NCBI GenBank assembly: GCA_033764505.1 | Contig: JANRIW010000027.1 | Coordinates: 100,720-164,719, forward strand | Source: Gemmatimonadales bacterium | GTDB lineage: Bacteria; Gemmatimonadota; Gemmatimonadetes; Gemmatimonadales; GWC2-71-9 | Direction of reading: 5' to 3' | DNA: 64,000 bases | Part shown: one piece after another, positions 27,609-61,839 of the stretch | How the letters are laid out: each line of letters begins with the position of its first letter | How positions within the stretch are numbered: the stretch's first letter is position 1 | Program-made: the position numbers and the translations under genes | Notes under the pieces: model-generated | What the model was told of the DNA's origin: nothing | Database searches by the model: none | What the model saw: only the letters and a program-made list of their open reading frames with translations

Positions 27609-27615
27609 CCTGTGC

Positions 27616-27644: not shown

Positions 27645-27720
27645 GCAGCGGCAAATCACCACGGGGGCAAGACGATTGTGGAAGCATTGTACGCGAAGGG
27701 CAGATGGTCGTCAAGGGATC

Positions 27721-27830
27721 GAGAAGCGAGAAGCGAGAAGCGAGGGGCGGAGACCGGGAGTTGACGCGAGCGATCCAATCACCGAAACTCGAGTGGTCCC
27801 ACGCTTCTCGCCTCTCGCTTCTCGCTTCTC
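27721..27830. repeat. inverted heptamer arrays (GAGAAGC)3+GAGGGGC ... (GCTTCTC-type)4
   Basis: Left array 27721-27748, 54-nt spacer, right array 27803-27830 (GCTTCTC GCCTCTC GCTTCTC GCTTCTC). The arms are near-perfect reverse complements. Confidence 0.9.
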
Positions 27831-27861
27831 GGCTTTCTGACTCTCACCGCCAGGCCACCCC

Positions 27862-28284
27862 ATGTCTGCCATCCCCCCCTTCCACCTCGCCTTCCCCGTG
27901 GACGACCTCGATGCCGCGCGCCGCTTCTACGGCGGATTGCTCGGCTGTGCCGAGGGACGTTCGTCCGACCAATGGGTGGACTTCAACTTCCAGGGGCACC
28001 AGATCGTGGCGCACCTCGCCCCGGAGGAGCTCGGCCGGACGGCGGCCAACCAGGTGGACGGTCACGCCGTCCCGGTGCGGCACTTCGGCCTGATCCTCGA
28101 GTGGGAGGCGTGGCACCAGCTGGCCGATCGGCTCCGCGCGGAGGGGATCCACTTCATCATCGAACCCGGGATCCGCTTTGTGGGGCAAGTCGGGGAACAG
28201 GCAACGATGTTCTTCCTGGACCCGGCGGGCAACGCCATCGAGTTCAAGTCGTTCCGCGATCCCTCGCAGACGTTCGCGCGGTAG
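27862..28284 (+). CDS. VOC-family (glyoxalase/dioxygenase fold) protein
   Basis: 140 aa. [22 protein letters not shown] at the N-terminus and [12 protein letters not shown] at the C-terminus are typical VOC beta-alpha-beta modules. Confidence 0.75.
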
Positions 28285-28293
28285 GGCGGCGAC

Positions 28294-28893
28294 GTGACCG
28301 CCGCCTACCTCCTGGCCACGATCCTCGGCGTCGGGTTGCTGCTCTTCTCCTCGTTCGGCGGAGGCGACAGCGCGAGTGACGGCGGCGACGTGACCGACCT
28401 TGCCGGAGACGGCGCGGTCGGTCACGACCTCGACGCCGGCCCGGGCGGCGCGAGCCACGTCCTCATCGGCCTCTTCAGTATCCGCAACATCACGTTCTTC
28501 CTCGCGGCGTTTGGCAGCACCGGCCTGCTGCTGACCGCGCTTGATGCTGGCGCGAACCGCACCGCCGTGCTGGCCACGTTGCTCGGCCTCACCGGGCTCG
28601 GCCTGTCGCACGCCGTCTTCACCTGGCTGCGCCGCAGCGACGCGTCGGTGGAGGCGCCGGGTGACCGCGACTTCGAGGGAGCCCTCGGACGCATCGTGCT
28701 GCCGGTGTCCGCGGAGAATCGCGGCCAGGTGGCATGCGTGATCGGGGGCCGCGAGTGCTACCTGACCGCCTCGCTCGCCGACGGCGTGGACCAGCCGCTC
28801 GCGATTGGACAAGAGGTTATCATTGTGGCTTCCCATGACGGCGTGGTCCGCGTCATGCCCGCCAGTTCGCTCGACCTCCCCTCCACCACGTGA
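28294..28893 (+). CDS. NfeD-like membrane protein
   Basis: N-terminal TM helices and a C-terminal soluble OB-like domain (GRIVLPVSAENRGQVACVI...GQEVIIVASHDGVVRV). Its stop overlaps the flotillin gene start. Confidence 0.6.
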   Translation: MTAAYLLATILGVGLLLFSSFGGGDSASDGGDVTDLAGDGAVGHDLDAGPGGASHVLIGLFSIRNITFFLAAFGSTGLLLTALDAGANRTAVLATLLGLTGLGLSHAVFTWLRRSDASVEAPGDRDFEGALGRIVLPVSAENRGQVACVIGGRECYLTASLADGVDQPLAIGQEVIIVASHDGVVRVMPASSLDLPSTT

Positions 28894-30179
28894 GGCCGGA
28901 CATGGATCTCGCCGTTGCCGCCGCGATGGGTGCCGTGTTTCTCGGCATTCTCCTCGCCATCACCATCGCCGTCAAGACGCTGATCGTGATCTGTCTCCCC
29001 AACGAGATGGTCGTGATCACCGGGCGTCGGCGGATGATGCCCGATGGTCGGGAGATCGGCTACCGGATTCTGCGCGGTGGTCGGACGCTGCGCATTCCGC
29101 TGATCGAGCGCGTGTCGCGCATCGACCTGCGGACCATCCCGATCGAGGTCGCGGTGCGCAACGCCTACTCGATGGGCGGCATCCCGCTGCTCGTGCAGGG
29201 CATCGCCAACGTCAAGGTGAGCGGCCGCGACCCGACGTCGCACAACGCGGTGGAGTGCCTGCTCGACAAGCCGTTCGGCGAGGTGATGCAGATCGCCAAG
29301 GACACGCTCGAGGGGAACCTCCGCGGCGTGCTGGCGACGCTCACGCCGGAGGAGGTCAACGAGGACCGCCTCAAGTTCGCGCAGCGGCTGATCGAGGAGG
29401 CCGACGAGGACCTGCGGAAGCTCGGCCTCGAGCTCGACACCCTCAAGATCCAGAACGTCACCGACGAGGTGAACTACCTCGGCTCGATCGGACGGCAGAA
29501 GACGGCGGAGATTCTCAAGATCTCGCGTGTCGCCGAGGCGCAGCGCGATGCCGAGGCCGAGCAGACCGAGGCCGCGTCGCGGCAGGCGGCACAGGTGGCA
29601 TCGCTGCAAGCCGACCTCCGCATCGCCGAGGAGAGCAACCGGCTTCGCGTTCGCCGGGCCGAACTGGAGGGAGAGGCCGTGGCGCGCGAGGCCGAGGCGG
29701 CGGTGGCCGGCGAGAAGGCACGCGTCGTGGCGCAGCAGGCGCTGCAGCAGGAACGCATTTCGTTGGAGCAGCGTCGGCTCGAGGCCGACGTGCTGTTGCC
29801 GGCGCGCGCCGAGCAGGAGGCATCCGAGGCGCGGGCACGCGGTGCCGCGGCCAGCATCGCCGAAGACGGCAAGGCCAAGCTCTACGTGCTCGAGCAGACC
29901 ATCAAGCTGTATCAGGGCGCCGGGACCGACGCCGAGCGGATCTTCATCCTCAACATGCTGCCCGAGATCATTGCCCAGATCAGCGGGTCGGTCGGCGAGA
30001 TGTCGATCGACAAGGTCACGGTGTTCGACTCCGGCAATGGCGCGACCGGCGTGGCGAATGCCGCCGGTCAGCTGCCGACCGCCATCATCCAGTTGACCAA
30101 GCAGATCGAAGCGGCCACGGGGGTCAACATCCTCAGCCGACTGCAGCAGACCCCCCCGCCGGCGACTCCCGGCGCGTAA
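28890..30179 (+). CDS. flotillin / SPFH (band 7) domain protein
   Basis: N-terminal TM helix, SPFH domain, and a long Ala/Glu-rich coiled-coil (AEAQRDAEAEQTEAASRQAAQ...). Pairing with NfeD is typical. Confidence 0.85.
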   Translation: MRPDMDLAVAAAMGAVFLGILLAITIAVKTLIVICLPNEMVVITGRRRMMPDGREIGYRILRGGRTLRIPLIERVSRIDLRTIPIEVAVRNAYSMGGIPLLVQGIANVKVSGRDPTSHNAVECLLDKPFGEVMQIAKDTLEGNLRGVLATLTPEEVNEDRLKFAQRLIEEADEDLRKLGLELDTLKIQNVTDEVNYLGSIGRQKTAEILKISRVAEAQRDAEAEQTEAASRQAAQVASLQADLRIAEESNRLRVRRAELEGEAVAREAEAAVAGEKARVVAQQALQQERISLEQRRLEADVLLPARAEQEASEARARGAAASIAEDGKAKLYVLEQTIKLYQGAGTDAERIFILNMLPEIIAQISGSVGEMSIDKVTVFDSGNGATGVANAAGQLPTAIIQLTKQIEAATGVNILSRLQQTPPPATPGA

Positions 30180-30240
30180 CCGGCCCGCGTCTTGCTCCCT
30201 CCCCTGTCCCTCCGGCAATTCAAGCCCACCTGACCGAAAT

Positions 30241-30259
30241 CCCCCCCAAAAGGGGGGGG
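30241..30259 (+). terminator. C7-A4-G8 hairpin downstream of the flotillin gene
   Basis: cccccccaaaagggggggg lies 62 nt after the stop codon. No T-tract follows. Confidence 0.35.
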
Positions 30260-30405
30260 CTGGTGGCGTGAGTTGTTGGGCGGGGCCCACGGCGCTGTGG
30301 CACATTCGCCACGCTTGGGTGTTGCCGGACTTCGTCCGATACCCGAAGTTGGTCCCCCGGGGCGGTCCTCGCCCGGCCATTCCAGACATCTCCTCAGGAG
30401 TCCCC

Positions 30406-31929
<1,524 letters not shown>

Positions 31930-31960
31930 GCCGCGCGGCAGGCATCACGACAGACACGAC

Positions 31961-31991
31961 AACGGGGGGCCGCGCATCGCGGCCCCCCGTT
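31961..31991. terminator. bidirectional stem-loop between convergent genes
   Basis: Perfect 14-bp stem aacggggggccgcg / cgcggccccccgtt with a 3-nt apex, between the S8 protease and DPP-IV gene ends. Confidence 0.6.
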
Positions 31992-32014
31992 GCTCTGTCC
32001 GGTGTGGCTCCGGC

Positions 32015-34123
32015 TCAGGACACCGGCGAGCCCTTCATCACCAGGTTCTCGATGAAGAACTCCATCATCCGCTGCTGGTTCACGGCGGTGTGCCCGGCAT
32101 CCGGCCCCACCTGCACCTCGAAGCTCTTGCCCGCGGCCTGCAAGGCCTTGATCAGCTGCATCGAGTTGTTCGGGTGCACGTTGTTGTCGGCCGTCCCGTA
32201 GTAGATCAGCAGCCGACCCTTGAGGTCCTTGGCGTAGGTCATCGCCGATCCGGCCGTGTAGCCCGCCGTGTTCTCCTGCGGGATCCACATGTAGCGCTCG
32301 GTATAGATCGTGTCGTAGTGGTTCCACGCGGTCACGGCCGAGGACGCCGCGGCCGCGGCCACGAGATTCGGGAAGCGCAGCAGCATCATCGCCGAGGTGT
32401 AGCCGCCGTACGAGGTGCCGAAGATCCCGACGCGCGCGCCGTCGATGTACGGCCGCGTGGCGAGTGCCTTCAACCCCTCGGCCATGTCGTCCATCTCGGT
32501 GGTGCCGAGCTTCTCGTAGAGCGCGTCGAGCGTGCGCTTCCCCATGCCCGGCGCGGCGCGCGAGTCGAGATTCACGACGATGAAGCCATACTCGGTCATC
32601 GACGAGGGAACCGACCAGGTCTCGCGCGCGGTGCTGCTCGCCGAGGCGGGACCACCGTAGACCGGCATGAGGACCGGGTACTTCCGGGCGGGATCGAAGT
32701 TGGACGGGTAGTGGATCAGCCCGCGCAACGTGGTCTTCCCGTCGGCCGCGAGGAAGGTGAACATCTCGACCTTCTTGAGGCCGAGCGCGTTGAACTTGGT
32801 GAGGTCCGACTCCGCCAGCGTCGCCACGGGCTTGCCGGAGGCGTCCAGCACGCGGGTGACGGGCGCCATGTTGTGCGCCTGGGCCACGTCCACGATGAAC
32901 TTGGCATCGGGCGAGAGATTGACGGTGTGATGGAGCGTCGGATCGGTGAGGCGCACGTTGCCCTTGCCGTTGAGCCCGACGCGGTGCAGCTGGAGCTTGA
33001 GGTAGTTGTCGCCGCTGCGCGCCATGTACCAGAGCACGCCGGCCGCCTCGTCGAGCTTGACGATGTTGGCCACCTCGAACTCATGCTGGGTCAGCGGTGC
33101 GATCAGCTTCCCCGAGAGGTCGTAGAGGTAGAAGTTCCTGAAGCCGTTGCGCTCCGACACCCAGAGGAAACGGTTGTTGTCGGCGAGCCACGTCATCTGC
33201 GGCCGATTCTCGACCCAACCCGTCGGCCACTCCTCACGGATCACCACGCGGCACTTGGCGGTCTCCGGCGAGCAGGCCGCGAACTCCATCACGTTCTGGC
33301 GACGGTTGGTGCGGTTGACCAGCAGCTCCTTGCCGTCGGGCGACCAGCGCACGTTGTAGACGTAGTGCCCCACGACATCGTTGCTCCACGGCTTGCCGTC
33401 GCGGATGTCGAGCTTGACCGACTGCTTGCTGACCACGTCGTAGACGAAGATGTCCACGACCGGATTGTCCACGCCGGCCTTGGGGTATGCCTCGACGTCG
33501 AGCGTCGACTGCACCTTGGTCTGGTCCATCTGCAGGAAGAAGTCGGGCACCGGCTTCTCGTCGAAGCGGTAGTACGCCACCTTGGTGCTCGAGGGATTCC
33601 ACCACATCGCCGTGGTCTGGCTCAGCTCCTCGCCGTACACCCAGCTCGCGGTGCCGTACTTGATCCGCTCCTTCTCGCTGCCATCCGTGGTGATCGGGGT
33701 GGCGTTGTTGCCGGCGCTGTCGGCCATGAAGAGGTTGCGGTCGCGGTAGATGGTCTTGAGCTGGCCGTTCGGCGCCACGGCCTCGGTCGCCTGCCGTCCG
33801 CGCTCGACGCCCGCCATCCCGCGCCCGCCGGCGCCGCGCCCGCCCGCGGGGGTCGCCGGCGTGCCGGGCGTGGTCACCTCGGCCACCTTCCGGGTGGCGG
33901 CGTCGAAGCGGAAGCGCTTGCCGTCCCACGCATACTCGAAGCCCTTCCCGCCGTCCACCCACTGCCCGTTGACCTGGCCGCTCTTCACGCTGCCGGCGAT
34001 CTGGGGGGCCATCCGGGTGTACTGCTCGTACCCCGGCATGTTCTTGAGGCGATCCTGCGCGGCCAGGGCGCCGGGGAGCGCCAGTGTCAGCAGCAAGGCG
34101 GAACGGATGTGCCGTGTCGTCAC
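32015..34123 (-). CDS. dipeptidyl-peptidase IV family serine peptidase (S9B)
   Basis: 702 aa. Signal peptide, DPP-IV N-terminal propeller region, and a C-terminal alpha/beta hydrolase with GIFGTSYGGY. Confidence 0.85.
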   Translation of the reverse strand: MTTRHIRSALLLTLALPGALAAQDRLKNMPGYEQYTRMAPQIAGSVKSGQVNGQWVDGGKGFEYAWDGKRFRFDAATRKVAEVTTPGTPATPAGGRGAGGRGMAGVERGRQATEAVAPNGQLKTIYRDRNLFMADSAGNNATPITTDGSEKERIKYGTASWVYGEELSQTTAMWWNPSSTKVAYYRFDEKPVPDFFLQMDQTKVQSTLDVEAYPKAGVDNPVVDIFVYDVVSKQSVKLDIRDGKPWSNDVVGHYVYNVRWSPDGKELLVNRTNRRQNVMEFAACSPETAKCRVVIREEWPTGWVENRPQMTWLADNNRFLWVSERNGFRNFYLYDLSGKLIAPLTQHEFEVANIVKLDEAAGVLWYMARSGDNYLKLQLHRVGLNGKGNVRLTDPTLHHTVNLSPDAKFIVDVAQAHNMAPVTRVLDASGKPVATLAESDLTKFNALGLKKVEMFTFLAADGKTTLRGLIHYPSNFDPARKYPVLMPVYGGPASASSTARETWSVPSSMTEYGFIVVNLDSRAAPGMGKRTLDALYEKLGTTEMDDMAEGLKALATRPYIDGARVGIFGTSYGGYTSAMMLLRFPNLVAAAAASSAVTAWNHYDTIYTERYMWIPQENTAGYTAGSAMTYAKDLKGRLLIYYGTADNNVHPNNSMQLIKALQAAGKSFEVQVGPDAGHTAVNQQRMMEFFIENLVMKGSPVS

Positions 34124-34196
34124 GTCGGAAACTCCGGGAGCGGTGGACTGGGGGTTGGGGAACAGTGGAGATACGCGCGGGGGAGGGAAAAGTTTG

Positions 34197-34324
34197 GGTG
34201 AACGGTGAACGGTGAACGGGGGTGCTGGTGAGGGGTGAGGGGTGAGGGGTGCTCAGTCTCTCCCCCCTCACTCCTCACCCAGCGCGGCGGTTGGCCGCGC
34301 CCCGTTCACCGTTCACCGTTCACC
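34197..34324. repeat. nested inverted heptamer arrays: (GGTGAAC)3 ... (GGTGAGG)3 / CCTCAC units ... (GTTCACC)3
   Basis: Outer arms 34197-34217 and 34304-34324 are perfect 21-nt reverse complements. An inner GGTGAGG array (34227-34247) faces cccctcactcctcaccc (34264-34280). There is also a GCGCGGC-ggttg-GCCGCGC hairpin at 34282-34300. Confidence 0.9.
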
Positions 34325-34331
34325 TGCCCCG

Positions 34332-34859
34332 CTACTTCGCCAGCTGAATCGCCGCCTTCAAATCATCATACGCCGTCGGGTCGATCTCGCGGAACGGCCG
34401 CATCACCTTGGCGATCTTGCCATCCTTGCCGATCACGAAGAGCACCCGGCTGTCCACGGTCCCGGCCGGGTTGGCCACGGCAAACGCCCGCCCGATGTTG
34501 CCGCCCACATCCGAGCCGAAGCGGAACGGGAACGCCTCGTCCTTGGCCCACGCGGCCAGGGCCTCGGGGGTGTCGGTCGAGATCGCGATGAGCTCGGCGT
34601 CCTTGCCGAAGAGCTCGTCGAAACGGTCGCGGTACGCCTTCATCTGGATGGTGCACCCGGAGGTGCGGGCCCGCGGGAAGAAGGCCAGCACCACGACCTT
34701 GCCCTTGAGCGAGGCGAGCGAGACCGGCTTCGAGGCGACACCATCCTTGCCCGCAACGGTCATCGAGACCGCCGGCGCGGCGTCACCCACGACGGGGCCC
34801 TGGGCCGTCAGCGCGGCCGGGAAGAGAAGCAGTGCAGCGAGGGAGAGGGAACGACGCAT
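34332..34859 (-). CDS. secreted peroxiredoxin (Bcp/AhpC-TSA family)
   Basis: Start at MRRSLSLAALLLFPAALTAQ. Peroxidatic Cys motif FFPRARTSGCT. Confidence 0.8.
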   Translation of the reverse strand: MRRSLSLAALLLFPAALTAQGPVVGDAAPAVSMTVAGKDGVASKPVSLASLKGKVVVLAFFPRARTSGCTIQMKAYRDRFDELFGKDAELIAISTDTPEALAAWAKDEAFPFRFGSDVGGNIGRAFAVANPAGTVDSRVLFVIGKDGKIAKVMRPFREIDPTAYDDLKAAIQLAK

Positions 34860-34926
34860 CGTGAGTGACCCGAAGTCGGAGTGGGGGCCGTGCGGACTGC
34901 CGCAGGAACCCCCAAAGATACCCCCG

Positions 34927-36153: not shown

Positions 36154-36168
36154 CGGGCCTCGCTGCAG

Positions 36169-36203
36169 GGTCGTAGGTCGTAGGTCGTAAGTCGTAGGTC
36201 GCC
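36169..36203. repeat. solo tandem heptamer array (GGTCGTA)3-AGTCGTA-GGTCGCC
   Basis: Five period-7 units in the 67-nt divergent gap between the dehydrogenase-like gene and ettA. I found no inverted partner within the neighbouring sequence. Confidence 0.85.
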
Positions 36204-36205
36204 CG

Positions 36206-36213
36206 ACTATTTT
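36206..36213 (+). promoter_or_regulatory. ACTATTTT box 7 nt upstream of the ettA ATG (candidate -10 of a leaderless mRNA)
   Basis: gACTATTTTctcctccATG. No SD is present (the 7 nt are CTCCTCC). The same octamer with the same spacing occurs at aguB. Confidence 0.3.
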
Positions 36214-36220
36214 CTCCTCC

Positions 36221-37897
<1,677 letters not shown>

Positions 37898-37900
37898 CGC

Positions 37901-38032
37901 GAGAAGCGAGAAGCGAGAGACGAGAAGCGAGCCCGCGCGCAAAGATCCTTCCGCATGAGCTCGCTTCTCGCTTCTCGCTTCTCGCTTCTCGCTTCTCGCT
38001 TCTCGCTTCTCGCTTCTCGCTTCTCGCTTCTC
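37901..38032. repeat. inverted heptamer arrays (GAGAAGC-type)4 ... (GCTTCTC)10
   Basis: Left array 37901-37928 (third unit GAGAGAC), 34-nt spacer, then ten perfect GCTTCTC units at 37963-38032. It fills the whole gap between the ettA stop (37897) and the stop of the small minus-strand gene (38034). Confidence 0.92.
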
Positions 38033-38033
38033 G

Positions 38034-38183
38034 CTAGACGACCTTCCGCCCCGAAATGAGCCGCACCAGGAAAATCACGATGGCGATGACGAGCAGCAGG
38101 TGAATCAGGCCGCCGAGGGCATAGCCGGTGCCCATGCCGAGGGCCCACATGATGATCAGGATGATGGCGATGGTCTGCAGCAT
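38034..38183 (-). CDS. small membrane protein (lmo0937-like, about 49 aa)
   Basis: MLQTIAIILIIMWALGMGTGYALGGLIHLLLVIAIVIFLVRLISGRKVV has two hydrophobic helices. It is the C-terminal part of ORF 38034..38576, taken from the internal ATG. Confidence 0.6.
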   Translation of the reverse strand: MLQTIAIILIIMWALGMGTGYALGGLIHLLLVIAIVIFLVRLISGRKVV

Positions 38184-38481
38184 GGGACGTTCCTCGTGTG
38201 TGGTCGTGGCGCGGTGCGCGAGACCGTGGTGAACCAACGAAGCCTGACCGGACGGCCAAAGGTGGCGTCCAGTCTGCCCCGGGTGACGCGCCGCCGGGGG
38301 CGGTGGACACACCGTCCGGGAGGCTGTTCCGCTCCAGCGTGACGACGGCAAACACCCACTCCATCTGAGGATGGACGTTTCCGGAGCGCCGCAATCGCGA
38401 GGCAACGTTCCCTCCATCCGCCTCAGGCAGTAGCTTCCTCCGTCCCCATCCCGTTCCTCCGATCCACCGGAGTTCTCCGAC

Positions 38482-41253: not shown

Positions 41254-41281
41254 CCCCCCAGTCGGCCGGTAACGGAACCAT

Positions 41282-41312
41282 GGCGGGGCGCAAGGACACC
41301 TTGCGCCCCGCC
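41282..41312 (+). terminator. stem-loop terminator after the S9 peptidase gene
   Basis: Perfect 14-bp stem ggcggggcgcaagg / ccttgcgccccgcc with loop aca, followed by ctgtgtttcgcctcttt. Confidence 0.6.
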
Positions 41313-41335
41313 CTGTGTTTCGCCTCTTTCCCCGG

Positions 41336-43507: not shown

Positions 43508-43511
43508 CACC

Positions 43512-50333: not shown

Positions 50334-50343
50334 GCGGCGCTCC

Positions 50344-53227: not shown

Positions 53228-53330
53228 GTCCTCTGGGGGGGAAGAACCCTTGAGGATAGCCCGGAAGGGCCGTGACGGGGAGGGTCTGCCGCTGTAGACT
53301 TACCCAACTTCCCCCTTTCCGGAGTTGCTC

Positions 53331-54017: not shown

Positions 54018-54018
54018 C

Positions 54019-54825
54019 GTGACTCGCCATCCCGGTCGCCTTGTCGCGCTGGCCCTGCTCACCCTCGGCTCGGCCTCCTGCGCCATCCTCTCGCAGCTGG
54101 GCTCGCCGCAGGGGGTGGAGGTCACCGCGGTGACCTACAACATCCGGCACGGCGCCGGGATGGACGACTCGCTCCGCCTGGAGCGGACAGCGGCGGCCCT
54201 CCGGCCGCTCGCCGCCGACTTCATCGCGCTGCAGGAAGTGGACAGGAACGTCAACCGCAGCAACAAGGTCGACCAGGCGCGCCTGCTCGGCGACCTGCTT
54301 GGCATGAAGTCGGCCTTCGGCGCCTTCATGGACTACCAGGGCGGCGAGTACGGGCTGGCGATCCTCTCGAAGTGGCCGATCGTGCGGAGTACGCCGCTCC
54401 GGTTGCCCGACGGCAACGAGCCGCGCGTGGCGCTGCTGGTGCAGGTCACCCTCGCCGACGGCTCACCGCTCACGGTGGTCTGTGTGCACTTCGACTGGGT
54501 GAGCAACGACAACTTCCGCTACGCCCAGGCCAAGGTGCTTGCGGCCACGCTCGACACCCTCTCGACGCCGTACCTGCTGATGGGTGACTTCAACGACGAG
54601 CCGGGCTCGCGCACCATCCGGCTCTTCGAGCGCGGTGCGATGGAGGCGGAGAAGCCGGCCGCCAATAACTTCACCTTTCCGGCCGCGCCGGCACCAGAGA
54701 AGGAGATCGACTTCATCTTCGTCTCGCCGGCCAAGCGGTGGCGCGTGGACAGCGTGGCGGTGGTCAACGAGCGGATGGCGTCGGACCATCGGCCGGTCGT
54801 GGCGAAGGTGGTGTTGCGGAAATAG
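54019..54825 (+). CDS. endonuclease/exonuclease/phosphatase (EEP) family protein
   Basis: Motifs VTYNIRHG, LQEVD, GDFN and the C-terminal SDHRPV. Lipoprotein-like signal ending in GSASC. Confidence 0.75.
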   Translation: MTRHPGRLVALALLTLGSASCAILSQLGSPQGVEVTAVTYNIRHGAGMDDSLRLERTAAALRPLAADFIALQEVDRNVNRSNKVDQARLLGDLLGMKSAFGAFMDYQGGEYGLAILSKWPIVRSTPLRLPDGNEPRVALLVQVTLADGSPLTVVCVHFDWVSNDNFRYAQAKVLAATLDTLSTPYLLMGDFNDEPGSRTIRLFERGAMEAEKPAANNFTFPAAPAPEKEIDFIFVSPAKRWRVDSVAVVNERMASDHRPVVAKVVLRK

Positions 54826-54857
54826 CGCGCGCGACCCTATCCGCCGTACGCCATTCG

Positions 54858-54879
54858 GCCGCGCCCGTCAGGGCGCGGC
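54858..54879. terminator. stem-loop between convergent genes
   Basis: gccgcgccc-gtca-gggcgcggc: 9-bp stem with a 4-nt loop. Confidence 0.5.
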
Positions 54880-54886
54880 TGAATGA

Positions 54887-55861
54887 TTACCGCGACAGCA
54901 CCACTCCGATCCCTCCGAAGAACTTCCCCGCATTCGGGTTGTTCTCGGCGTAGCGCGTGGTGAGCGCCAGGTTCGAGCCGACCTGGTAGCCGCCCTCGCC
55001 GACGAGGTGGAGCGGACCCACGTGGAAGCCGAGGTTGAGCGCGGTGACGATCCGCATGCCGGAGAGCTTCGGCTCGAGGACCTCGCCCACGGTGCCGGTG
55101 CCGGGATCGCGGTAGGCCACCTCGCCCTTCCCCGAGAGCAGATCCGCTCCCGCGCCGGCCGCGAACTCGAACCAACCGAAGCGCTTCCCCGCAAAGAGCC
55201 GCACGTCGATCGCCGAGGCGTTGAAGGTCCACGCGGTGGTCTGGCCGTTGGTGGTGCCGCCCATCTGCACCGTCGGGGTCGAACGCTTCATGATCGAGAG
55301 CGAGACCGTCGGCAGCTTCGCGCTCGTCATCCCGGCGCGGATGCCCCAGTCGAGCGAGACCGTTGCGTCCTGGATGGTGCGGCTGCCCGGCACCGGCGTA
55401 AAGAGATCGGTACGGTTGCGGGGAATGACCAGCGCCGAGAGGAGGAAGTCGACGCCGACCACGCCCATCGGCATCTGCTTCTGGAGGATCCCCATCGCGA
55501 GGTCCACGCGCGGGGCGTAGAGCTGCACGCGGCGGCCGACGGGGACGGTGTCGGTGTTGCCGGCCCAGGCGAGGTCGGGGACCACGGCCATCGCCGTGGT
55601 GGCTCGGAGCCCGAGGGCAATGTGGCCGAAGCGGCCGATCACGCCGGCGCTGCCGAGGCGGGGGTTACCGCCGTTCATCAGGAGCGCCGCAATCGGGTGG
55701 ATCATGGTGATGCCGTCGAGGGCCGCGGTGCAGACCTTGGCACCCGCCGTCGAGAGCCCGGTGGGGCAGACCACGGCGGCGGTGTCGGTGGTGGTCTGGG
55801 CGGCGGCCCGGCTGACAGGCACCAAACACGCGGCAACAGCGAGCAGGAGAACACGACGCAC
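54887..55861 (-). CDS. hypothetical secreted protein, possible outer-membrane beta-barrel
   Basis: Signal peptide MRRVLLLAVAACLVPVSRAAAQ. Gly/aromatic alternating strands. No recognised family. Confidence 0.45.
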   Translation of the reverse strand: MRRVLLLAVAACLVPVSRAAAQTTTDTAAVVCPTGLSTAGAKVCTAALDGITMIHPIAALLMNGGNPRLGSAGVIGRFGHIALGLRATTAMAVVPDLAWAGNTDTVPVGRRVQLYAPRVDLAMGILQKQMPMGVVGVDFLLSALVIPRNRTDLFTPVPGSRTIQDATVSLDWGIRAGMTSAKLPTVSLSIMKRSTPTVQMGGTTNGQTTAWTFNASAIDVRLFAGKRFGWFEFAAGAGADLLSGKGEVAYRDPGTGTVGEVLEPKLSGMRIVTALNLGFHVGPLHLVGEGGYQVGSNLALTTRYAENNPNAGKFFGGIGVVLSR

Positions 55862-56016
55862 GGCGACTCCGATCAGAGGTCGCCGTGCGAAATCGCAAGA
55901 ACTGAACCGCGGGTGGCGGGGTCTTAACCCTTGCTATTGCAATGGGTTATGCAGCCCAGCGGAACCCGGGAAACCGGCCATCCCTGCCGGAGCGGCAAGA
56001 ATGGCCGGGGGTCTGG

Positions 56017-57861
56017 CTACTTCGCCAACTCGCGCACCGCCTCGGCGAGCATCGCAACCTTCCCCTTGTCACTCGACGTCTTGGCATCGGTGTCCACCTG
56101 CCCTGCGATGCGCGTCAGCGCCGCAGTCCGGGCAGCACCATTGGCACGCTCCGCCGCCGTCAGGCCGCTCCGCAGCGCCGCAATCCGCGCCGCCGAGACG
56201 CCCTTGGACCGTTCAAGCTGATCCACGAACGACCGCGCCTTCGCGAAGCTCGCCGGCCACACCATCATCGGCTGCTCCTGCGGATTGAGCTCGGCCCAGA
56301 CCACCGTCTTGGCGGCATCAATTTCGTTCTGCGAGATGAACTTGCTCGGGGTAAGCTCGAACACATCGAGGCCACGCGCAATCTCGGAGTTGACGATCAC
56401 GCCGTTGTACCAGTACACCGACCACGAGCCACCGCTGGTGAGCTCGCCATCCTTGAGCGGGCCGCGGTCGTGGAAGGCGATCTCGAACGGGTTCGACGGA
56501 TCGGTCCAGTCGAAGATCGAGATGCCGCCCTGGTACCACCCCTGCACCATCACCTCGCGCCCCGGGATCGGGATCGGCGAGCCGTTGTGCGCCACGCAGT
56601 TCTCCCACTCGGTCTGGCGCGACGGCATCTTGTAGTAGCTCTTGAACACCATCTTGCCGTTCTCGATCGTGAAGAGCGCGTTGGCGCCCCACTCGTACTT
56701 GTCACTCGCGCGACAACGCGGCGCACGGCCCCCGCCCCACTCGTCGGTGAAGAGCACCGCCTTGCCGTCGTTGTGGAAGGTGGCCGAGTGCCAGAAGGAG
56801 AAGTTGGTGTCGGCCACCGCATCGATGCGGCGCGGATTGGCCGGATTGCTTATGTCGAGCAACAGGCCGTAGCCGCCGCACGCCCCACCCGCCAGGCCAA
56901 CCGCAGGATAGACCGTGATGTCGTGGCACTGGCTCGGACCGGTCCGGACTCGCGGCGCCCCACCCGCCGCACCACGGCCACCACCAGCCCCACGGCCGGC
57001 CGCAGAGGTCGAGTCACCTGCGGCACCACGTCCCGCACCCGCGCCACCACGAGCCGCCGCGTTCGGAGCCGGCGGCGTGCTGCGCGTCGGCGCCGGACCG
57101 AGGTCGGTGAAGATCCGCGGCGACGAGACGATCGCGGCCTTCGACGGATCGGCGAGCGGGACCTTGATCACTTCGATGCGGAAGAGCGCCGAGTTCGGGT
57201 CCTGGTCCGGTGCGAGGTTCGAGCAGCCCGGCAGCTCGTCGGCGGAGCGCACGCCTGACGAACCAGAGATGTACACGTAGACGTTGTCCGGGTCGTTCTT
57301 GTCGGTCACCACCGTGTGGGTGTGCGAGCCGCGGCAGGTCTGCACGTTGCCCACGTACTTCGGCCGCTGCGGATCGGTCATGTCGAAGATCCGGATGCCG
57401 CGCACCCGCTCCTTGCTGACCGGCTCGGGCACGCCCTGGGTGCCGCAGTCCATGCGACCCGTGAGCCCCTCGGCCGAGACAAAGGCGAGGTGTTTGTAGA
57501 CCGAGACGTCACTCTGCGACGCCGGGCAGTGGGCCCAGTTCACCAGGTGCGGCTTCGCCGGATCGGCGATGTCCCACACCAGGAAGCCGTTGTAGTTGCC
57601 CTGATAGACCTTGGTGCCTGAGAAGGCGAGGTCGGTGTTGTTGGCCAAAGCAAATGGCCCAGGCGACGGCGTCGCCGAGAGGAGCTTGAGGTTCCAGATC
57701 GCCTCGCCGGCGTCGTGCATCCCCGCCTTGAGCCCCTCGCGCGGATCGGGCGACGGCGTGGTCTTGACCTTCTGCTGGGCAGCAACCGGCAGCGCGGTCG
57801 CGGCGAGCAGCAGCCCGAGCAGCGGCAACGCTCGGCGGAACGAAGGGACAGCAACGGTCAT
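56017..57861 (-). CDS. secreted beta-propeller protein (LVIVD-repeat-like)
   Basis: 614 aa with a signal peptide. Repeated blocks of the type GFLVWDI, GIRIFDM, ISIFDW, VFEL. Gly/Arg/Ala-rich insert and a C-terminal helical tail. The family call is tentative. Confidence 0.5.
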   Translation of the reverse strand: MTVAVPSFRRALPLLGLLLAATALPVAAQQKVKTTPSPDPREGLKAGMHDAGEAIWNLKLLSATPSPGPFALANNTDLAFSGTKVYQGNYNGFLVWDIADPAKPHLVNWAHCPASQSDVSVYKHLAFVSAEGLTGRMDCGTQGVPEPVSKERVRGIRIFDMTDPQRPKYVGNVQTCRGSHTHTVVTDKNDPDNVYVYISGSSGVRSADELPGCSNLAPDQDPNSALFRIEVIKVPLADPSKAAIVSSPRIFTDLGPAPTRSTPPAPNAAARGGAGAGRGAAGDSTSAAGRGAGGGRGAAGGAPRVRTGPSQCHDITVYPAVGLAGGACGGYGLLLDISNPANPRRIDAVADTNFSFWHSATFHNDGKAVLFTDEWGGGRAPRCRASDKYEWGANALFTIENGKMVFKSYYKMPSRQTEWENCVAHNGSPIPIPGREVMVQGWYQGGISIFDWTDPSNPFEIAFHDRGPLKDGELTSGGSWSVYWYNGVIVNSEIARGLDVFELTPSKFISQNEIDAAKTVVWAELNPQEQPMMVWPASFAKARSFVDQLERSKGVSAARIAALRSGLTAAERANGAARTAALTRIAGQVDTDAKTSSDKGKVAMLAEAVRELAK

Positions 57862-57900
57862 CGTGGCATCCTCGGGAGGGTCAGGGTGATGCGGGGCAAC

Positions 57901-58485
57901 CTACGGACGAGACGGGGGTGGCAAGGCGTCGAGCATGGCCTGGAGAAATTCGATTTCGGTGGTCTGGTCGGCGTACACATCGGACGCAAAGCGGAAGACA
58001 AACTCATCCTGCCCTGCCCCGTGCGAGGCGAAGAGCTCGTCCACCATCGCGACGGCCCCCTCGTGGTGCTTGATCATCGAGGCGAGAAAGAAGCGATCGA
58101 ACTCGACGCCACGGAGCCCATCGAGCTTCTGCATCTCCTCATCGGAGAGCATGCCGGGCATGAGCATGGCATGCTCCATCCCGTCCATCTTCATCATGAC
58201 ATGCGTGGCGTTGGTATCGGGTACCGGCAGCCCCAGCCCGCGGAGCCAGGTGCGCATCGCGGCGATCTCGTCGCGCTGCGCCACCGCGATCCGCTCCGCG
58301 AAGCGCCGCAGCGCGGCACTGGCTCCGTGCGTCGGCGCCCAGCGCGCCATCTTCACCGCCTGGGCATGATGCGGGATCATGCCGGTGATGAACTTCACGT
58401 CGGCCGGCGACACCGGCGCCTGGGCCGGGAGCGCGGGGGCTGCAGTGACCAATGTGAGGAGCGCGAGCAGGGGCAAAGCCTTCAT
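57901..58485 (-). CDS. DUF305-family secreted protein
   Basis: Start at MKALPLLALLTLVTAAPALPAQA. Two HH motifs (MIPHHAQAV, MIKHHEGAV) are characteristic of DUF305. Confidence 0.75.
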   Translation of the reverse strand: MKALPLLALLTLVTAAPALPAQAPVSPADVKFITGMIPHHAQAVKMARWAPTHGASAALRRFAERIAVAQRDEIAAMRTWLRGLGLPVPDTNATHVMMKMDGMEHAMLMPGMLSDEEMQKLDGLRGVEFDRFFLASMIKHHEGAVAMVDELFASHGAGQDEFVFRFASDVYADQTTEIEFLQAMLDALPPPSRP

Positions 58486-58588
58486 GGGGACAGCTCCAGC
58501 AATGGCGGCTTGGGGATAAGCCTTGAGAATAGCCCCGCGAGCGGAGATGCGGGAGGTGCGCAGCAGACCGCGGCAAACCGCGGCCTGA

Positions 58589-58632
58589 CGGCCGCGGCTG
58601 AAAACGGCCGCGGCTGAAAACGGCCGCGGCTG
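58589..58632 (-). repeat. tandem 16-nt repeat (CGGCCGCGGCTGAAAA x2.75) forming reiterated terminator-like hairpins
   Basis: On the minus strand each junction reads CCGCGGC-cgttttca-GCCGCGG followed by CCGUUUU. It lies just downstream of the stop of gene 58649..59659. Further CCGCGG copies occur at 58568-58586. Confidence 0.7.
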
Positions 58633-58648
58633 GGACGGCTTGGGGTGG

Positions 58649-59659
58649 CTACCGCCGCACCACCACATCAATAGGCGCCCGCACGATGAAGCGGTAGCTC
58701 AGCTCCCAGGGCGTGTTGAAGAAGGCGATGCTCTCTTCATCATCGATGCGGTGCCAGCGCGCCTCGGCGTCGAAGGTCGCGCCACCGCCGATCCCGGTGC
58801 GCCGCAGCAGGCCGAGCTCGGTGTACTTGCGTCGAGCACGATAGAAATCGGGATCGAGCCCGGTCGAGTTGTAGTTGTTGTCGCCGGCCGCGGCCACGAA
58901 GTCGCGCCCGCGCCAGTGAATCGCGAACACCTCGACCCATCCGCGCGGCGTGATGCCTGCGCGCAGGTAGGTGCCGCGCCCCTTCGAGGCGCGCTCCGCC
59001 GGATAGTCCGGGTCGATGTTCCCGTCACTCCAGAGCCGCCACGCCGCCAGCGACGACGCACCCACCACGGGCAGCGTCCGCCGCACTGTTGCGCCGAGCG
59101 CGGTGACGCGGTTGTTGCTCACCGGCACGCCGGCGTCGAAGAGCTGCCCGCCACGATGCGACCAGAGGTGCTGTGCCTCCACGCTCGCCCACTCGACCGG
59201 GTCGAGGCGCACCGTGGCCCCCATCTCGAAGGCCTCGCGCTGCGTCGGCGTGTTGAGCTGCTGCCAATTGACCCAGGCCTCGCCCCGGAACGCACCGCGC
59301 GTCTCGATCCACTGGAGCCCCGACTCGACCGGCGTGGTCAGCTCGCGGGTAGTGACCATCAGCGGCTCGAGGAGTCCGTGGCGCCGGACCGTCTCCAGGG
59401 TCCCGACAATGCCCTCCGAGTGCCGTGTGCGATAGCGGAACGACACGATCGGCAGCAACGAGTCGGTGAACTGCTCGCTCCCCAGCCGACGATCGGCGTA
59501 GAGGCCGAGACGCAGTTCGGTCCGCCGACCCGGCTTGGCCGCCAGCCAGGTCTGGACCTGGGTGCCGAGGATGGTCTCGCCGGTGCGGTAGGGGGTGAAG
59601 AACTCGGTGTTGTCGCCGTAGAGCGCCGCGCGGACGCGCCAATCGAGCCGTTGCGCCAT
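58649..59659 (-). CDS. hypothetical secreted/outer-membrane protein (start probably upstream, non-canonical)
   Basis: 336 aa from the first ATG. The in-frame upstream codons encode IRVPITVLALAFVLAAPGPAMA, a canonical signal peptide, with no ATG/GTG/TTG before the upstream stop. Confidence 0.5.
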   Translation of the reverse strand: MAQRLDWRVRAALYGDNTEFFTPYRTGETILGTQVQTWLAAKPGRRTELRLGLYADRRLGSEQFTDSLLPIVSFRYRTRHSEGIVGTLETVRRHGLLEPLMVTTRELTTPVESGLQWIETRGAFRGEAWVNWQQLNTPTQREAFEMGATVRLDPVEWASVEAQHLWSHRGGQLFDAGVPVSNNRVTALGATVRRTLPVVGASSLAAWRLWSDGNIDPDYPAERASKGRGTYLRAGITPRGWVEVFAIHWRGRDFVAAAGDNNYNSTGLDPDFYRARRKYTELGLLRRTGIGGGATFDAEARWHRIDDEESIAFFNTPWELSYRFIVRAPIDVVVRR

Positions 59660-59779
59660 GGCCGGTCCGGGTGCCGCCAGGACGAACGCGAGGGCCAGAA
59701 CAGTGATCGGGACGCGGATGGGAGCCTCGGGGCCAGAGGACGGTTCCTCCCCGGGCGGATGCCGTCACCCGGGGCCAGC

Positions 59780-59787
59780 ACTATTTT
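59780..59787 (+). promoter_or_regulatory. ACTATTTT box 7 nt upstream of the aguB ATG (candidate -10 of a leaderless mRNA)
   Basis: cACTATTTTagtcgccATG has the same octamer and spacing as ettA. No SD. Confidence 0.3.
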
Positions 59788-59794
59788 AGTCGCC

Positions 59795-60691
59795 ATGACT
59801 ACTTCGCGAACCGTTCGGGTCGGTCTGGTCCAGCAGAAGGTGGGGCCCACCCCCGCCGGCAACCTCGACCGCGCCATCGAGGGGATCCGGGCCGCCGCTG
59901 CCAAGGGTGCCCAGATCGTCTGCCTGCAGGAGCTCTTCGGCTGGTACTACTTCTGCCAGCGGGAAGATCACGACTTCTTCCAGCTCGCCGAGGCGATCCC
60001 CGGCCCCTCGACCGACCGTCTCTCCGAGGTGGCCAATGAGCTCGGCGTGGTGATCATCGCCTCGCTCTTCGAGCGGCGCGCCCAGGGGCTCTACCACAAC
60101 ACCGCCGCCGTGATCGATGCCGACGGCAGCTACCTCGGCAAGTACCGGAAGATGCACATTCCGGACGACCCGCAGTTCTACGAGAAGTTCTACTTTACCC
60201 CCGGCGACCTCGGCTTCCGCAGCTGGGACACCAAGTTCGGCAAGATCGGCGTGCTGATCTGCTGGGATCAATGGTATCCGGAGGCCGCGCGTCTCACGGC
60301 GATGAGCGGCGCCGAAATTCTCTTCTATCCGACGGCGATCGGCTGGCTCCCGCCCGAGAAGGCGGAATACGGCGAGCGGCAGCAGGCAGCGTGGGAGACC
60401 ATCCAGCGCAGCCACGCCGTGGCCAACGGCTGCTACGTCTGCGCCGTGAACCGCACCGGACTCGAGATCCTGCCCGAGAGCCGCGACGGCGCGCCGGGGA
60501 TCGAGTTCTGGGGCGGGTCGTTCATCGCCGACCCGAATGGCCGCATCCTGAGCAAGGCAGGACAGGACGAGGAGATTCTCGTGGCCGACTGCGACCTCGG
60601 CAACGTGGACGTGGTGCGCACCCACTGGCCCTTCCTGCGTGACCGCCGCATCGACGCGTACGGCGACCTGACGAAGCGCTACCTTGACTGA
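59795..60691 (+). CDS. aguB: N-carbamoylputrescine amidase (nitrilase superfamily)
   Basis: Internal ATG of ORF 58640..60691. Glu-Lys-Cys triad blocks CLQELF, YRKMHIP and ICWDQWYPE. Adjacent to aguA. Confidence 0.85.
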   Translation: MTTSRTVRVGLVQQKVGPTPAGNLDRAIEGIRAAAAKGAQIVCLQELFGWYYFCQREDHDFFQLAEAIPGPSTDRLSEVANELGVVIIASLFERRAQGLYHNTAAVIDADGSYLGKYRKMHIPDDPQFYEKFYFTPGDLGFRSWDTKFGKIGVLICWDQWYPEAARLTAMSGAEILFYPTAIGWLPPEKAEYGERQQAAWETIQRSHAVANGCYVCAVNRTGLEILPESRDGAPGIEFWGGSFIADPNGRILSKAGQDEEILVADCDLGNVDVVRTHWPFLRDRRIDAYGDLTKRYLD

Positions 60692-61727
60692 GACGCCTGC
60701 CGCGCGCGGCTTCCGCATGCCGGCCGAGTGGGCGCCGCATCGGGGCACCTGGCTCTCGTGGCCCCACCGTGAGTCGAGCTGGCCGGGGAATTTCTTCCCG
60801 GTCCCCTTCGTGATCGCCGAGATGATTCGCCACCTCGCCCCGGGCGAGGAAGTGCACGTGAACGTGGCCGATGACGTGATGGAGGGCGAAGCACGCGCGG
60901 TGCTCGCCGAGGCGAAGGTCGCCACGACCAACGTCTTCTTCCATCACTTCCCGACCAACGACGCGTGGTGTCGCGATCACGGGCCGATCTTTGTGCAGCG
61001 TGAGCACGGTGGTGCGCGCGAGCAGTTGATCCTCGACTGGGGCTACAACGCGTGGGGCGGCAAGTACCCGCCCTTCGATCTCGACAACGAGATCCCGCGA
61101 CTGGTGGCCGAGGAGTACGGCATCGAACGCGTGTCGCCCGGGATGATCCTCGAGGGCGGTTCGATCGAGGTGAACGGCGAAGGGATCCTGCTGACCACCG
61201 AGGCGTGTCTCCTCAATCCGAACCGGAACCCGGAGCTCAACAAGGCGCAGATCGAGCAGCGCCTTCGCGACCACCTGGGCGTGCGCAAGATCCTCTGGCT
61301 CGGCGAAGGGATCGTCGGCGATGACACCGACGGCCACATCGACGACATCACCCGCTTCGTGGATCCGCGCACCATCGTCACCGTGCTCGAAGACGACCCG
61401 GCCGACGAGAACTACGCGCTGCTCCTCGAGAACCTGATGCGCCTCGAGGCGATGACGGACGAGGCGGGCGAGCCCTTCCGGATCGTGACCCTGCCAATGC
61501 CGCGGCCGGTGATCTATGAGGATCAGCGCCTCCCCGCGTCGTACGCCAACTTCTACATCGGCAACGAGGTGGTCCTGCTCCCGGGCTATGACGCCGAGCG
61601 GGACGAGATCGCCCGGGCCACGTTGCAGACGCTCTTCCCGACCCGCCGCGTGGTGGTGATCGACTGCACCGCGCTGATCTGGGGGCTGGGGGCGTTCCAC
61701 TGTTTGACGCAGCAGTGGCCGGAGTAG
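60684..61727 (+). CDS. aguA: agmatine deiminase
   Basis: N-terminus FRMPAEWAPHRGTWLSWPH and C-terminal catalytic-Cys block GAFHCLTQQWP. Overlaps the aguB end by 8 nt. Confidence 0.9.
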   Translation: MTETPAARGFRMPAEWAPHRGTWLSWPHRESSWPGNFFPVPFVIAEMIRHLAPGEEVHVNVADDVMEGEARAVLAEAKVATTNVFFHHFPTNDAWCRDHGPIFVQREHGGAREQLILDWGYNAWGGKYPPFDLDNEIPRLVAEEYGIERVSPGMILEGGSIEVNGEGILLTTEACLLNPNRNPELNKAQIEQRLRDHLGVRKILWLGEGIVGDDTDGHIDDITRFVDPRTIVTVLEDDPADENYALLLENLMRLEAMTDEAGEPFRIVTLPMPRPVIYEDQRLPASYANFYIGNEVVLLPGYDAERDEIARATLQTLFPTRRVVVIDCTALIWGLGAFHCLTQQWPE

Positions 61728-61730
61728 ACG

Positions 61731-61839
61731 GCGAACAGCGAACAGCGATCGGCGAACGGCGGGTTGTCGGGGTATTTCCCCATGTGTGCGTTCCCTGAGG
61801 TCGCGGACCGCGGTTCGCTGTTCGCTGTTCGCCGTTCGC
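61731..61839. repeat. inverted heptamer arrays (GCGAACA-type)4 ... (TGTTCGC-type)4
   Basis: Left array: GCGAACA GCGAACA GCGATCG GCGAACG (61731-61758). A 53-nt spacer follows. Right array: GGTTCGC TGTTCGC TGTTCGC CGTTCGC (61812-61839). Confidence 0.9.

Follow-up and report, generated by a model that had tools for sequence, protein, structure and literature searches.

The stretch of DNA analyzed here, 64,000 nucleotides of an uncultured Gemmatimonadales bacterium (contig JANRIW010000027.1, positions 100,720 to 164,719 of the forward strand; 69% G+C) and hereafter called the window, carries five intergenic sites at which a unit of 7 nucleotides (nt) is repeated head to tail, and at four of them (sites 1, 2, 4 and 5) the array is followed by a spacer and then by an array of the reverse-complement unit. 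The explanation that we favor, and to which we would give about an even chance, is that these elements are heptanucleotide microsatellite palindromes, which would change in length by replication slippage, whose two arms would be kept symmetric at the level of the DNA, and some of which, at gene 3' ends, would have been co-opted as hairpins.

Period-7 arrays at five intergenic sites

With Tandem Repeats Finder and by direct reading, period-7 arrays were found exactly where an earlier note on this DNA had placed them, four sites being inverted and one solo. Exact arrays of at least three copies in the whole window number six at period 7 and none at each other period from 4 to 12, a second scan gave nine period-7 arrays as opposed to zero or one for periods 6 and 8–12, and 100 dinucleotide-preserving shuffles of the window yielded no exact array, so that a chance origin is ruled out both by the shuffles and by the other periods. 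Genes of the window were delimited with a caller based on third-codon-position G+C (GC3) and with the called genes of relatives, Pfam serving for assignments; all 10 arrays of the window are intergenic, and in the wider element set 5 of 93 were scored as genic by a crude gene caller. A head-to-tail 7-nt unit in at least three copies and a non-coding location are features of bacterial heptanucleotide microsatellites, as is the copy-number polymorphism described below.

A coding or peptide repeat is ruled out by this intergenic location, in the window as well as by the called genes of relatives, and by the stop codons that several units contain. An assembly artifact is ruled out too, since more than 15 independent assemblies, made from different samples and sources, contain the same loci. 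A known RNA family is likewise excluded among those of Rfam 15: at gathering score the single match in the window is a SAM_alpha riboswitch (27598–27672), and the arrays match no RNA family.

The five sites have the following features.

Site 1: divergent, between the SAM-II riboswitch/metX-metY operon (minus strand) and the glyoxalase gene (plus strand)
27718–27744 (+): left arm, (GAGAAGC)×3.6–3.9, between two back-to-back −35 boxes
27745–27801 (+): spacer, holding the conserved promoter of the glyoxalase gene
27761–27766 and 27784–27789 (+): −35 (TTGACG) and −10 (GAAACT) of that promoter, with a 17-nt gap
27802–27831 (+): right arm, (GCTTCTC)×4.3, start of the 5' untranslated region (UTR) of the glyoxalase mRNA, with ATG at 27862
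27714–27709 and 27691–27686 (−): −35 and −10 of the metX/riboswitch promoter
Site 2: co-directional, flanked by two minus-strand genes, with the stop of AhpC on one side and the start of the DPPIV peptidase on the other; 7 nt separate the element from the AhpC stop (34332, minus) and 73 nt from the peptidase start (34123)
34197–34219 (+): outer left arm, (GGTGAAC)×3.3
34227–34251 (+): inner left arm, (GGTGAGG)×3.6
34262–34324 (+): right arms, with inner CCTCAC units at about 34264–34280 and outer (GTTCACC)×3.3–3.6 at 34300–34324
Site 3: divergent, flanked by the start codons of a GSDH-like gene and of ettA
36169–36201 (+): solo (GGTCGTA)×4.7, between the GSDH-like start (36153, minus) and the ettA start (36221)
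Site 4: convergent, the element filling the entire gap from the ettA stop to the DUF5670 stop
37899–37931 (+): left arm, (GAGAAGC)×4.7 including the variant unit GAGAGAC, beginning 1–3 nt past the ettA stop (37895–37897)
37960–38035 (+): right arm, (GCTTCTC)×10.9, reaching and overlapping the stop of the DUF5670 gene (38034–38183, minus)
Site 5: co-directional, the agmatine deiminase stop being followed by an extracytoplasmic function (ECF) sigma gene
61728–61761 (+): left arm, GCGAACA-type ×4.4, directly past the agmatine deiminase stop (61725–61727)
61809–61842 (+): right arm, TGTTCGC-type ×4.4–4.9, followed by an ECF-type promoter-like motif and the ECF sigma gene (ATG 61896)

Polarity and position of the pairs

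Sixty-one inverted pairs were collected from the window, its relatives and other Gemmatimonadota loci. The purine- and G-rich arm comes first in 54 of them, the remaining 7 are ambiguous, their units having as much G as C, and in none does the C-rich arm lead. When 36 pairs are sorted by the type of gap, 15 are found in convergent, 13 in co-directional and 8 in divergent gaps, compared with 42, 113 and 60 background gaps of at least 40 bp, which amounts to an approximately twofold enrichment of pairs in convergent gaps (chi-square about 11). Elements in convergent gaps span from stop codon to stop codon at distances of 0–6 nt, and those in co-directional gaps adjoin the upstream stop at 0–12 nt. 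At stop codons, the purine-rich strand is the sense strand in 12 versus 4 solo arrays of Gemmatimonadota and in 25 versus 9 (GAGAAGC)n arrays of other phyla; many of the Vibrionaceae arrays start exactly at the stop codon.

The elements draw on at least ten different units. Most of these fit G-Y-G-A-R-N-N, as had been read from the window in the earlier note, and they differ from one another by one or two substitutions, with intermediates inside mixed arrays such as CGTTCGC TGCTCGC TTCTCGC in the right arm of site 4 in one relative (L212).

Allele classes at orthologous sites

The ettA regions of relatives were compared with that of the window (W), the average nucleotide identity (ANI) being taken over about 20 kb; homologues of the EttA protein of the window with 97–100% identity occur among the proteins of Gemmatimonadales metagenome-assembled genomes (MAGs). 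The groups are as follows.

A: the L119 group, 10 contigs; ANI to the window 93.9%
B: L213; 87.8%
H: L225; 88.9%, and 93% to B
C: L212; 81%
D: L209, L210 and L211; 80%, with L209 and L210 at 99% to each other
E, F and G: L214, L217 and L215; 73–77%

With few exceptions, sites 1 to 4 of W, A, B, C, D and H hold heptamer arrays, and the neighboring intergenic gaps of these six never do. The alleles found are these.

Site 1: W, GAGAAGC; A, GCGAACA; B and D, GATGATC/GATCGAT; C, GAGGACC
Site 2: W and B, GGTGAAC; A, C and H, GTAACCA/GTGACCA; D, plain hairpin
Site 3: W, D and H, GGTCGTA; A, B and C, GAGTCNT
Site 4: W, D and H, GAGAAGC; A and C, nested GCGAACA and GGTGAGG; B, GAGGACC

Each site has two to four sharply differing allele classes that use different heptamers. 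Homology between alleles of one class is clear across lineages. At site 4, W and H (89% ANI) have in common the variant unit GAGAGAC and almost the whole spacer, W and D (80% ANI between W and L209) have the same unit and alignable spacers, and A and C (81% ANI between L119 and L212) have the nested allele with a common loop, GGGGGAACAnCCCCC. The last two codons of DUF5670 track the allele of this site, being GTGGTG in A and C and GTCGTC in W, B and D. The idea of a family in which units change and period and inverted architecture stay constant, put forward in the earlier note from the window, is supported.

The spread of the alleles conflicts with the species tree (((W,A),(B,H)),C,D), in a different way at each site, and the cassettes are therefore either old alleles reshuffled by recombination or long-lived polymorphisms. 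They have not been rewritten since W and A split. Hyper-fast turnover of the units, which is what the difference at all four sites from the closest relative (94% ANI) would suggest, was rejected: distant genomes carry the alleles of the window nearly unchanged.

Copy number changes in whole units among close strains. At site 4, a single GCGAACA unit is the difference among the 10 near-identical contigs of group A, and the copies of the right arm number 6.9 in L209, 5.9 in L210 and 4.9 in L211, which has the same EttA protein; whole-unit steps are thus visible at 99% ANI. Such changes between near-identical genomes fit replication slippage. Hairpins can also be lost, leaving solo arrays behind. 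At site 3, L209, L211 and L225 keep a full pair, GGTCGTA...GACCTAT, and L210 and the window are each independently without spacer and right arm, so the array is solo in the window because these parts of an inverted pair were lost. Site 5 is absent in one relative with an agmatine deiminase 92% identical, and in another it is a solo purine-rich array directly past the stop codon.

Symmetry of the two arms

The two arms of a pair invariably have one unit in common, and site 1 allows this symmetry to be considered apart from RNA folding. In all five lineages its spacer contains TTGAC[GTC], exactly 17 nt and NAnnnT, despite four different arm heptamers; the left arm lies between the −35 box of the glyoxalase gene and that of the divergent metX, and the 5' UTR of the glyoxalase gene begins with the right arm. 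With a promoter inside the spacer, the two arms are therefore not on one transcript, and they share the unit within each of the four allele classes. Of 15 co-directional pairs, only 7 have a sense RNA that folds more stably than its antisense counterpart, and the mean difference is +3.8 kcal/mol in favor of the antisense strand; at site 2 of L212, an A-C mismatch recurs in every unit of the sense RNA, which folds at −33 kcal/mol versus −67 for the antisense. Since the arms of site 1 agree without being co-transcribed, and the sense strand has no advantage, the symmetry seems to be upheld in the DNA itself, not through RNA folding. We infer that template switching or gene conversion between the arms is responsible; the arms would be equalized in single-stranded DNA, with no need of selection for an RNA hairpin.

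Arrays of this kind would expand into any unconstrained DNA, which would account for their adjoining stop codons, −35 boxes and start codons alike. The elements that flank promoters (sites 1 and 3) would then be by-products, or would act on the DNA or in the 5' UTR.

Hairpins and their possible role at transcript ends

When folded as RNA, the four inverted pairs form the long stems that had been expected of them, at −70 to −99 kcal/mol and with z-scores of −4.9 to −13.3 relative to shuffles: −70.3 kcal/mol for the arms of site 1 (z −7.3), −98.8 for the minus strand of site 2 (z −13.3), −74.4 and −87.4 for the plus and minus strands of site 4, and −74.0 for site 5 (z −7.3). The solo array of site 3 has no RNA structure (z +0.9). 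A stable GC-rich hairpin past a stop codon, as in an intrinsic terminator, is present at sites 2, 4 and 5 and not at sites 1 and 3, which lie between divergent genes. A consensus scan of the sites found no U-tract right after a stem. The earlier note had stated that none has a U-tract, which holds for canonical U-tract terminators and has to be qualified at site 2, where, in the sense orientation of the upstream AhpC gene, a UUUU run stands 5–8 nt past the stem. Hairpin-plus-U-tract terminators are not in excess in 11 kb, with 1 found and 4.5 expected from shuffles. The orthologous site 2 is a plain GC hairpin in L209 and L210 and a GC stem with TTTTT in L214 (lineage E), and downstream of ettA, on reading the sequence, several more distant lineages apparently have small hairpins only.

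Elsewhere in the window, at 31930–32014, 41254–41314, 54826–54886 and 15954–16015, perfect GC-rich hairpins of 11–15 bp stand at gene 3' ends, without U-tracts and with either strand polarity, which suggests that transcript-end hairpins in this genome generally lack U-tracts.

The earlier note had held that an intrinsic-terminator role cannot explain all of the sites. This part stands, as two of the five are divergent and the arms of site 1 are not co-transcribed; its dismissal of the role was too strong, given that most elements adjoin stop codons, that convergent gaps are enriched and that plain or TTTTT hairpins replace the elements at orthologous positions. At gene 3' ends, where most elements lie, the very stable hairpins would have been co-opted as U-tract-poor, bidirectional transcript-end hairpins, and would there terminate transcription or protect the 3' end. 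Judged from the DNA, a terminator-like role at these ends is plausible as a secondary, unproven function.

The same observations can be read the other way round, with the elements as primarily selected RNA elements, that is, factor-independent bidirectional terminators of a high-GC genome without U-tracts, in which a pyrimidine-rich 3' arm would provide the weak RNA:DNA hybrid and the repeats would let the hairpin form in many registers. Hybrids of pyrimidine RNA with purine DNA are weak, a possible physical rationale for the polarity. With nearest-neighbor values after Sugimoto et al. 1995, the 3' arms of GAGAAGC, GCGAACA, GGTGAAC and AGGAGAG form hybrids that are weaker than those of the 5' arms by 2.1–3.3 kcal/mol per 9-mer and that rank among the weakest 6–8% of genomic 9-mers; for the main units at 3' ends, the hybrid of the pyrimidine arm is among the weakest 3–9%. 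This fit of the polarity, the very stable folds, the position at stop codons, the convergent enrichment, the orthologous replacement by plain or canonical terminators and the lack of an excess of canonical terminators in 11 kb all speak for selected RNA elements. We nevertheless consider them unlikely to be primarily that: the arms of site 1 are not on one transcript, site 3 lies between two start codons, the sense strand has no stability advantage (at site 2 of L212 the antisense fold is by far the stronger), ordinary hairpins of the same genome have either polarity, and site 5 is absent beside a 92% identical agmatine deiminase.

Alternative explanations

The elements might also be neutral or selfish DNA without function that expands in unconstrained intergenic DNA, with palindromy and polarity as side effects of mutational biases, such as an R-loop-promoted expansion of purine-rich sense repeats where the RNA is freed of ribosomes past the stop codon. 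Polymorphism of presence and of hairpin loss without obvious cost, rapid change of copy number, and the purine-sense bias that solo arrays at stop codons show both in other phyla (25 versus 9) and in Gemmatimonadota (12 versus 4) are what such DNA would produce. It would not be expected to occupy the same four gaps down to about 80% ANI and never the neighboring ones, nor to persist as little-changed allele classes across species, and a universal mutational bias does not predict pairing that is so strongly clade-specific; we consider this explanation, for these reasons, unlikely.

Several observations weigh against the microsatellite palindromes that we favor. Site occupancy is kept over about 20% divergence, with alleles that by eye are at least as conserved as the neighboring genes, and this conservation of both suggests some constraint beyond that on a neutral by-product. 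The polarity is essentially unexplained by any model tested, including slippage with template switching; ordinary hairpins of the same genome follow no purine-first rule, and the argument from hybrid weakness fails for the GGTCGTA and GAGTCNT units. As to co-option, divergent gaps hold two of the five window sites and 8 of the 36 pairs, the likeness of sense and antisense folds gives no positive sign of selection at the RNA level, and termination by the elements is unproven, position being what points to it. Shared spacers, finally, hint at copying between loci.

A more demanding proposal, which we regard as rather improbable, is that a dedicated DNA-level process common to Gemmatimonadales and Xanthomonas writes and maintains symmetric arrays of fixed chirality, the cassettes then persisting as ancient allele classes that pass from species to species. 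The G-rich strands would run 5' to 3' toward the center of the element, like two fused telomeres, and candidate processes would be the addition of repeats to both 3' ends of an intergenic break, or an expansion from stop codons driven by transcription or R-loops.

Spacers are mostly unrelated, with two cases of similarity between sites among 40 compared. One joins L003 with site 4 of lineage D (L209), a non-orthologous site, at 23 of 26 spacer bases, and the other joins L003 and L009, two sites on one contig, which have GGGATCTTCCCGCC in common (14 of 14). A single mobile element of fixed sequence, already thought improbable in the earlier note, was rejected on the ground of these unrelated spacers and of the 64-kb window, in which no transposase, reverse transcriptase or RAYT, the transposase of repetitive extragenic palindromic (REP) sequences, is encoded. 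REP sequences and the related REPINs consist of one conserved palindrome at many loci, and here the units differ between sites; miniature inverted-repeat transposable elements (MITEs) have a conserved interior and target-site duplications, and here the interiors are unrelated and a host promoter is conserved inside site 1.

Non-autonomous palindromes of the REPIN or MITE kind, mobilized by a transposase encoded elsewhere and with the heptamer arrays as terminal inverted repeats, are very unlikely for much the same reasons. Near-identical arms and spacers at non-orthologous sites (L003 with site 4 of L209; L003 with L009) and the wholesale replacement of alleles at one site, in discordance with the species tree, are what mobility would give. 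The between-site similarities are only two, the units at least ten and the arm copy numbers unequal, the host promoter persists inside the supposed element across all allele classes, no enzyme of the kinds listed is present in the window, and ectopic gene conversion between loci with identical arms explains the shared spacers equally well; it would account for them without a transposase.

As an observation on the spacers themselves, a GGGATCT(T/C)CCCGCC-like core with GATC recurs in those of GAGAAGC pairs from separate loci and genomes, and could reflect copying between loci or a functional loop motif. It is found at the following places.

6947–6976 in L003
6109–6140 in L009
about 7754–7790 in L007
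37932–37959 in the window
11703–11737 in L209

Regulatory devices acting as DNA, whether cruciforms that absorb supercoils or paired arrays at which a repeat-binding protein would loop or insulate promoters and gene ends, would suit the concordant arms of site 1, its promoter in the loop and the arrays next to −35 boxes, yet they deserve hardly any credence, as the kinetics of cruciform extrusion disfavor long spacers and those here measure 27–60 nt, many units per genome, with four at one site across lineages, make a sequence-specific binder implausible, and a 7-bp period does not match the helical repeat.

Occurrence in other genomes

A scan of a genome collection, for which (GAGAAGC)×3 was the only query, returned more than 118 loci, 33 of them from Gemmatimonadota MAGs, often several per genome, and the remainder from Vibrionaceae, Pseudoalteromonas, Planctomycetota, Acidobacteriota, Bacteroidota and further groups. 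Of the (GAGAAGC)n arrays, 19 of 40 in Gemmatimonadota have a partner of reverse-complement sequence no more than 200 nt away, versus 2 of 92 in other taxa. In about 800 kb around more distant EttA genes only 27 heptamer arrays were found, a density several times below that of the window (9–10 in 64 kb). Inverted heptamer pairs are thus characteristic of this Gemmatimonadales clade.

Long solo GAGAAGC arrays, of up to 16–18 copies, occur in Vibrionaceae, Pseudoalteromonas, Planctomycetota, Bacteroidota and others (among these loci are L005, L023, L039, L045, L067, L073, L075, L084, L098 and L117). In L215 (77% ANI), up to six different heptamer arrays occupy two neighboring intergenic gaps, at 4275–5134 and 11703–11762, with the units GAGGGGT, AAGGTGA, GTCGTAG (12 copies), TGGATGT, CACCCCT and CCGTTCG, and two different direct arrays stand back to back after ettA.

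Other features near the arrays and in the window

The SAM_alpha (SAM-II) riboswitch (27598–27672, minus strand; 47.5 bits) lies upstream of the metX-metY operon and is kept with its promoter in relatives A to D; the same motif is also present upstream of ettA in L131. Rfam describes this family as alphaproteobacterial.

At site 3, positions 36203–36220 and their orthologues in L119, L209, L212, L213 and L214 hold a conserved TATTTT that ends 7 nt before the ettA ATG, with TATCTT in its place in distant relatives. It looks like the −10 box of a predicted leaderless mRNA, and the heptamer array takes up the position in which the −35 box of ettA would be expected. At site 5, a conserved TGCAACC, 16–17 nt and CGTCT are found upstream of the ECF sigma gene at 61845–61880 and at the orthologous positions of L219 and L220, and look like an autoregulated ECF-type promoter; the element stands between this motif and the preceding stop codon, and is missing in L219.

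Two further features of the window lie apart from the arrays. Between divergent genes, 526 bp at 12916–13441 have no gene called by the GC3-based caller and a high predicted structure, and may hold a missed gene or an RNA. At 58588–58632, between a DUF305 gene and a CN-hydrolase gene that diverge from each other, there is a perfect tandem repeat of period 16, (ACGGCCGCGGCTGAAA)×2.8, each unit of which includes the palindrome GCCGCGGC; it may be an operator array.

Comparison with known systems

REP, BIME and REPIN sequences of Proteobacteria are intergenic, often in the 3' UTR, form inverted hairpin doublets, vary between strains, and can stabilize or terminate transcripts; they are fixed imperfect palindromes of about 20–40 nt with a conserved sequence and a RAYT transposase. 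The elements described here resemble them in being intergenic, in their inverted, hairpin-forming doublets and in their variability between strains, and differ from them in arms that are tandem 7-mers of many kinds, in unrelated spacers and in the lack of a RAYT in the window. "I-shaped" hairpin terminators without U-tract have been proposed for high-GC Actinobacteria, and inverted pairs of uptake sequences serve as terminators in Neisseria and Haemophilus. Both have in common with the present elements a GC-rich hairpin right past the stop codon without a canonical U-tract, and the uptake sequences also the double, inverted use of an abundant short motif; their stems, however, are not tandem repeats and have no fixed purine-first polarity, and the elements here are only putative terminators. 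If those at 3' ends do terminate transcription, they would show how high-GC bacteria can build bidirectional terminators without U-tracts, and the prediction of terminators and operons in poorly studied phyla would have to include them.

Inverted hairpins of heptamer arrays had been thought in the earlier note to be undescribed for a high-GC, non-cyanobacterial genome, but inverted heptamer pairs of the same polarity are already published for Xanthomonas, with a G+C content of about 65%. Rehm et al. 2015 (PMC4692102) report 183–186 GGGAATC repeats per Xanthomonas genome, including 70–75 convergent inverted pairs; the two arrays of a pair lie near each other and are "always" convergent, the pairs mostly follow an open reading frame (ORF) closely and are rare between divergent genes, and the repeats differ in length between species and have no identified function. 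The likeness to the pairs described here covers the period of 7, the intergenic location, the close arrays on opposite strands with convergent G-rich strands, a position nearer to the end of the upstream ORF than to the next start, under-representation between divergent genes, and variation in length among related species. Arrays of one heptamer on opposite strands within about 150 nt are found at four of the five window sites, and the G-rich arm is 5' in 54 of the 61 pairs. A G-quadruplex unit of the type GGGNATC is not found, and only GGTGAGG (read as GGGGTGA) has runs of G: Xanthomonas has one dominant, G-quadruplex-forming unit, whereas at least ten are in use here, most of them unable to form G-quadruplexes. 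The arrays here, unlike those of Xanthomonas, can be nested, and the phylum differs; allele classes discordant with the species tree, and arms shown not to need co-transcription, are not described for Xanthomonas.

The short tandemly repeated repetitive (STRR) sequences of cyanobacteria and the TAACTGA repeats of Beggiatoaceae are, like the arrays here, abundant intergenic tandem heptamers of several unit families at gene boundaries, but they are almost all direct arrays, mostly just upstream of start codons, in low-GC genomes (PMC4679880); in Beggiatoa, 169 direct sets of TAACTGA stand against one indirect set (MacGregor 2015, PMC4679880).

That heptamers are over-represented among bacterial microsatellites has been on record since 2007 (Mrazek et al. 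2007, through PMC4692102) and has no accepted explanation, and our literature searches found no description of such repeats in Gemmatimonadota. The clade is an unusually clean system for their study, with many units per genome, a near-absolute polarity and orthologous sites over a graded series of genomes, and its discordant allele classes are a ready-made marker of recombination among uncultured species. At one site at least, site 1, the evidence indicates that mirror symmetry is kept at the level of DNA and not by RNA folding. Beside the Xanthomonas pairs, what is new here is the co-existence of many units, mostly without G-quadruplex potential, the nesting of arrays, a quantified polarity, allele classes discordant with phylogeny, and a case of symmetry maintained at the DNA level.

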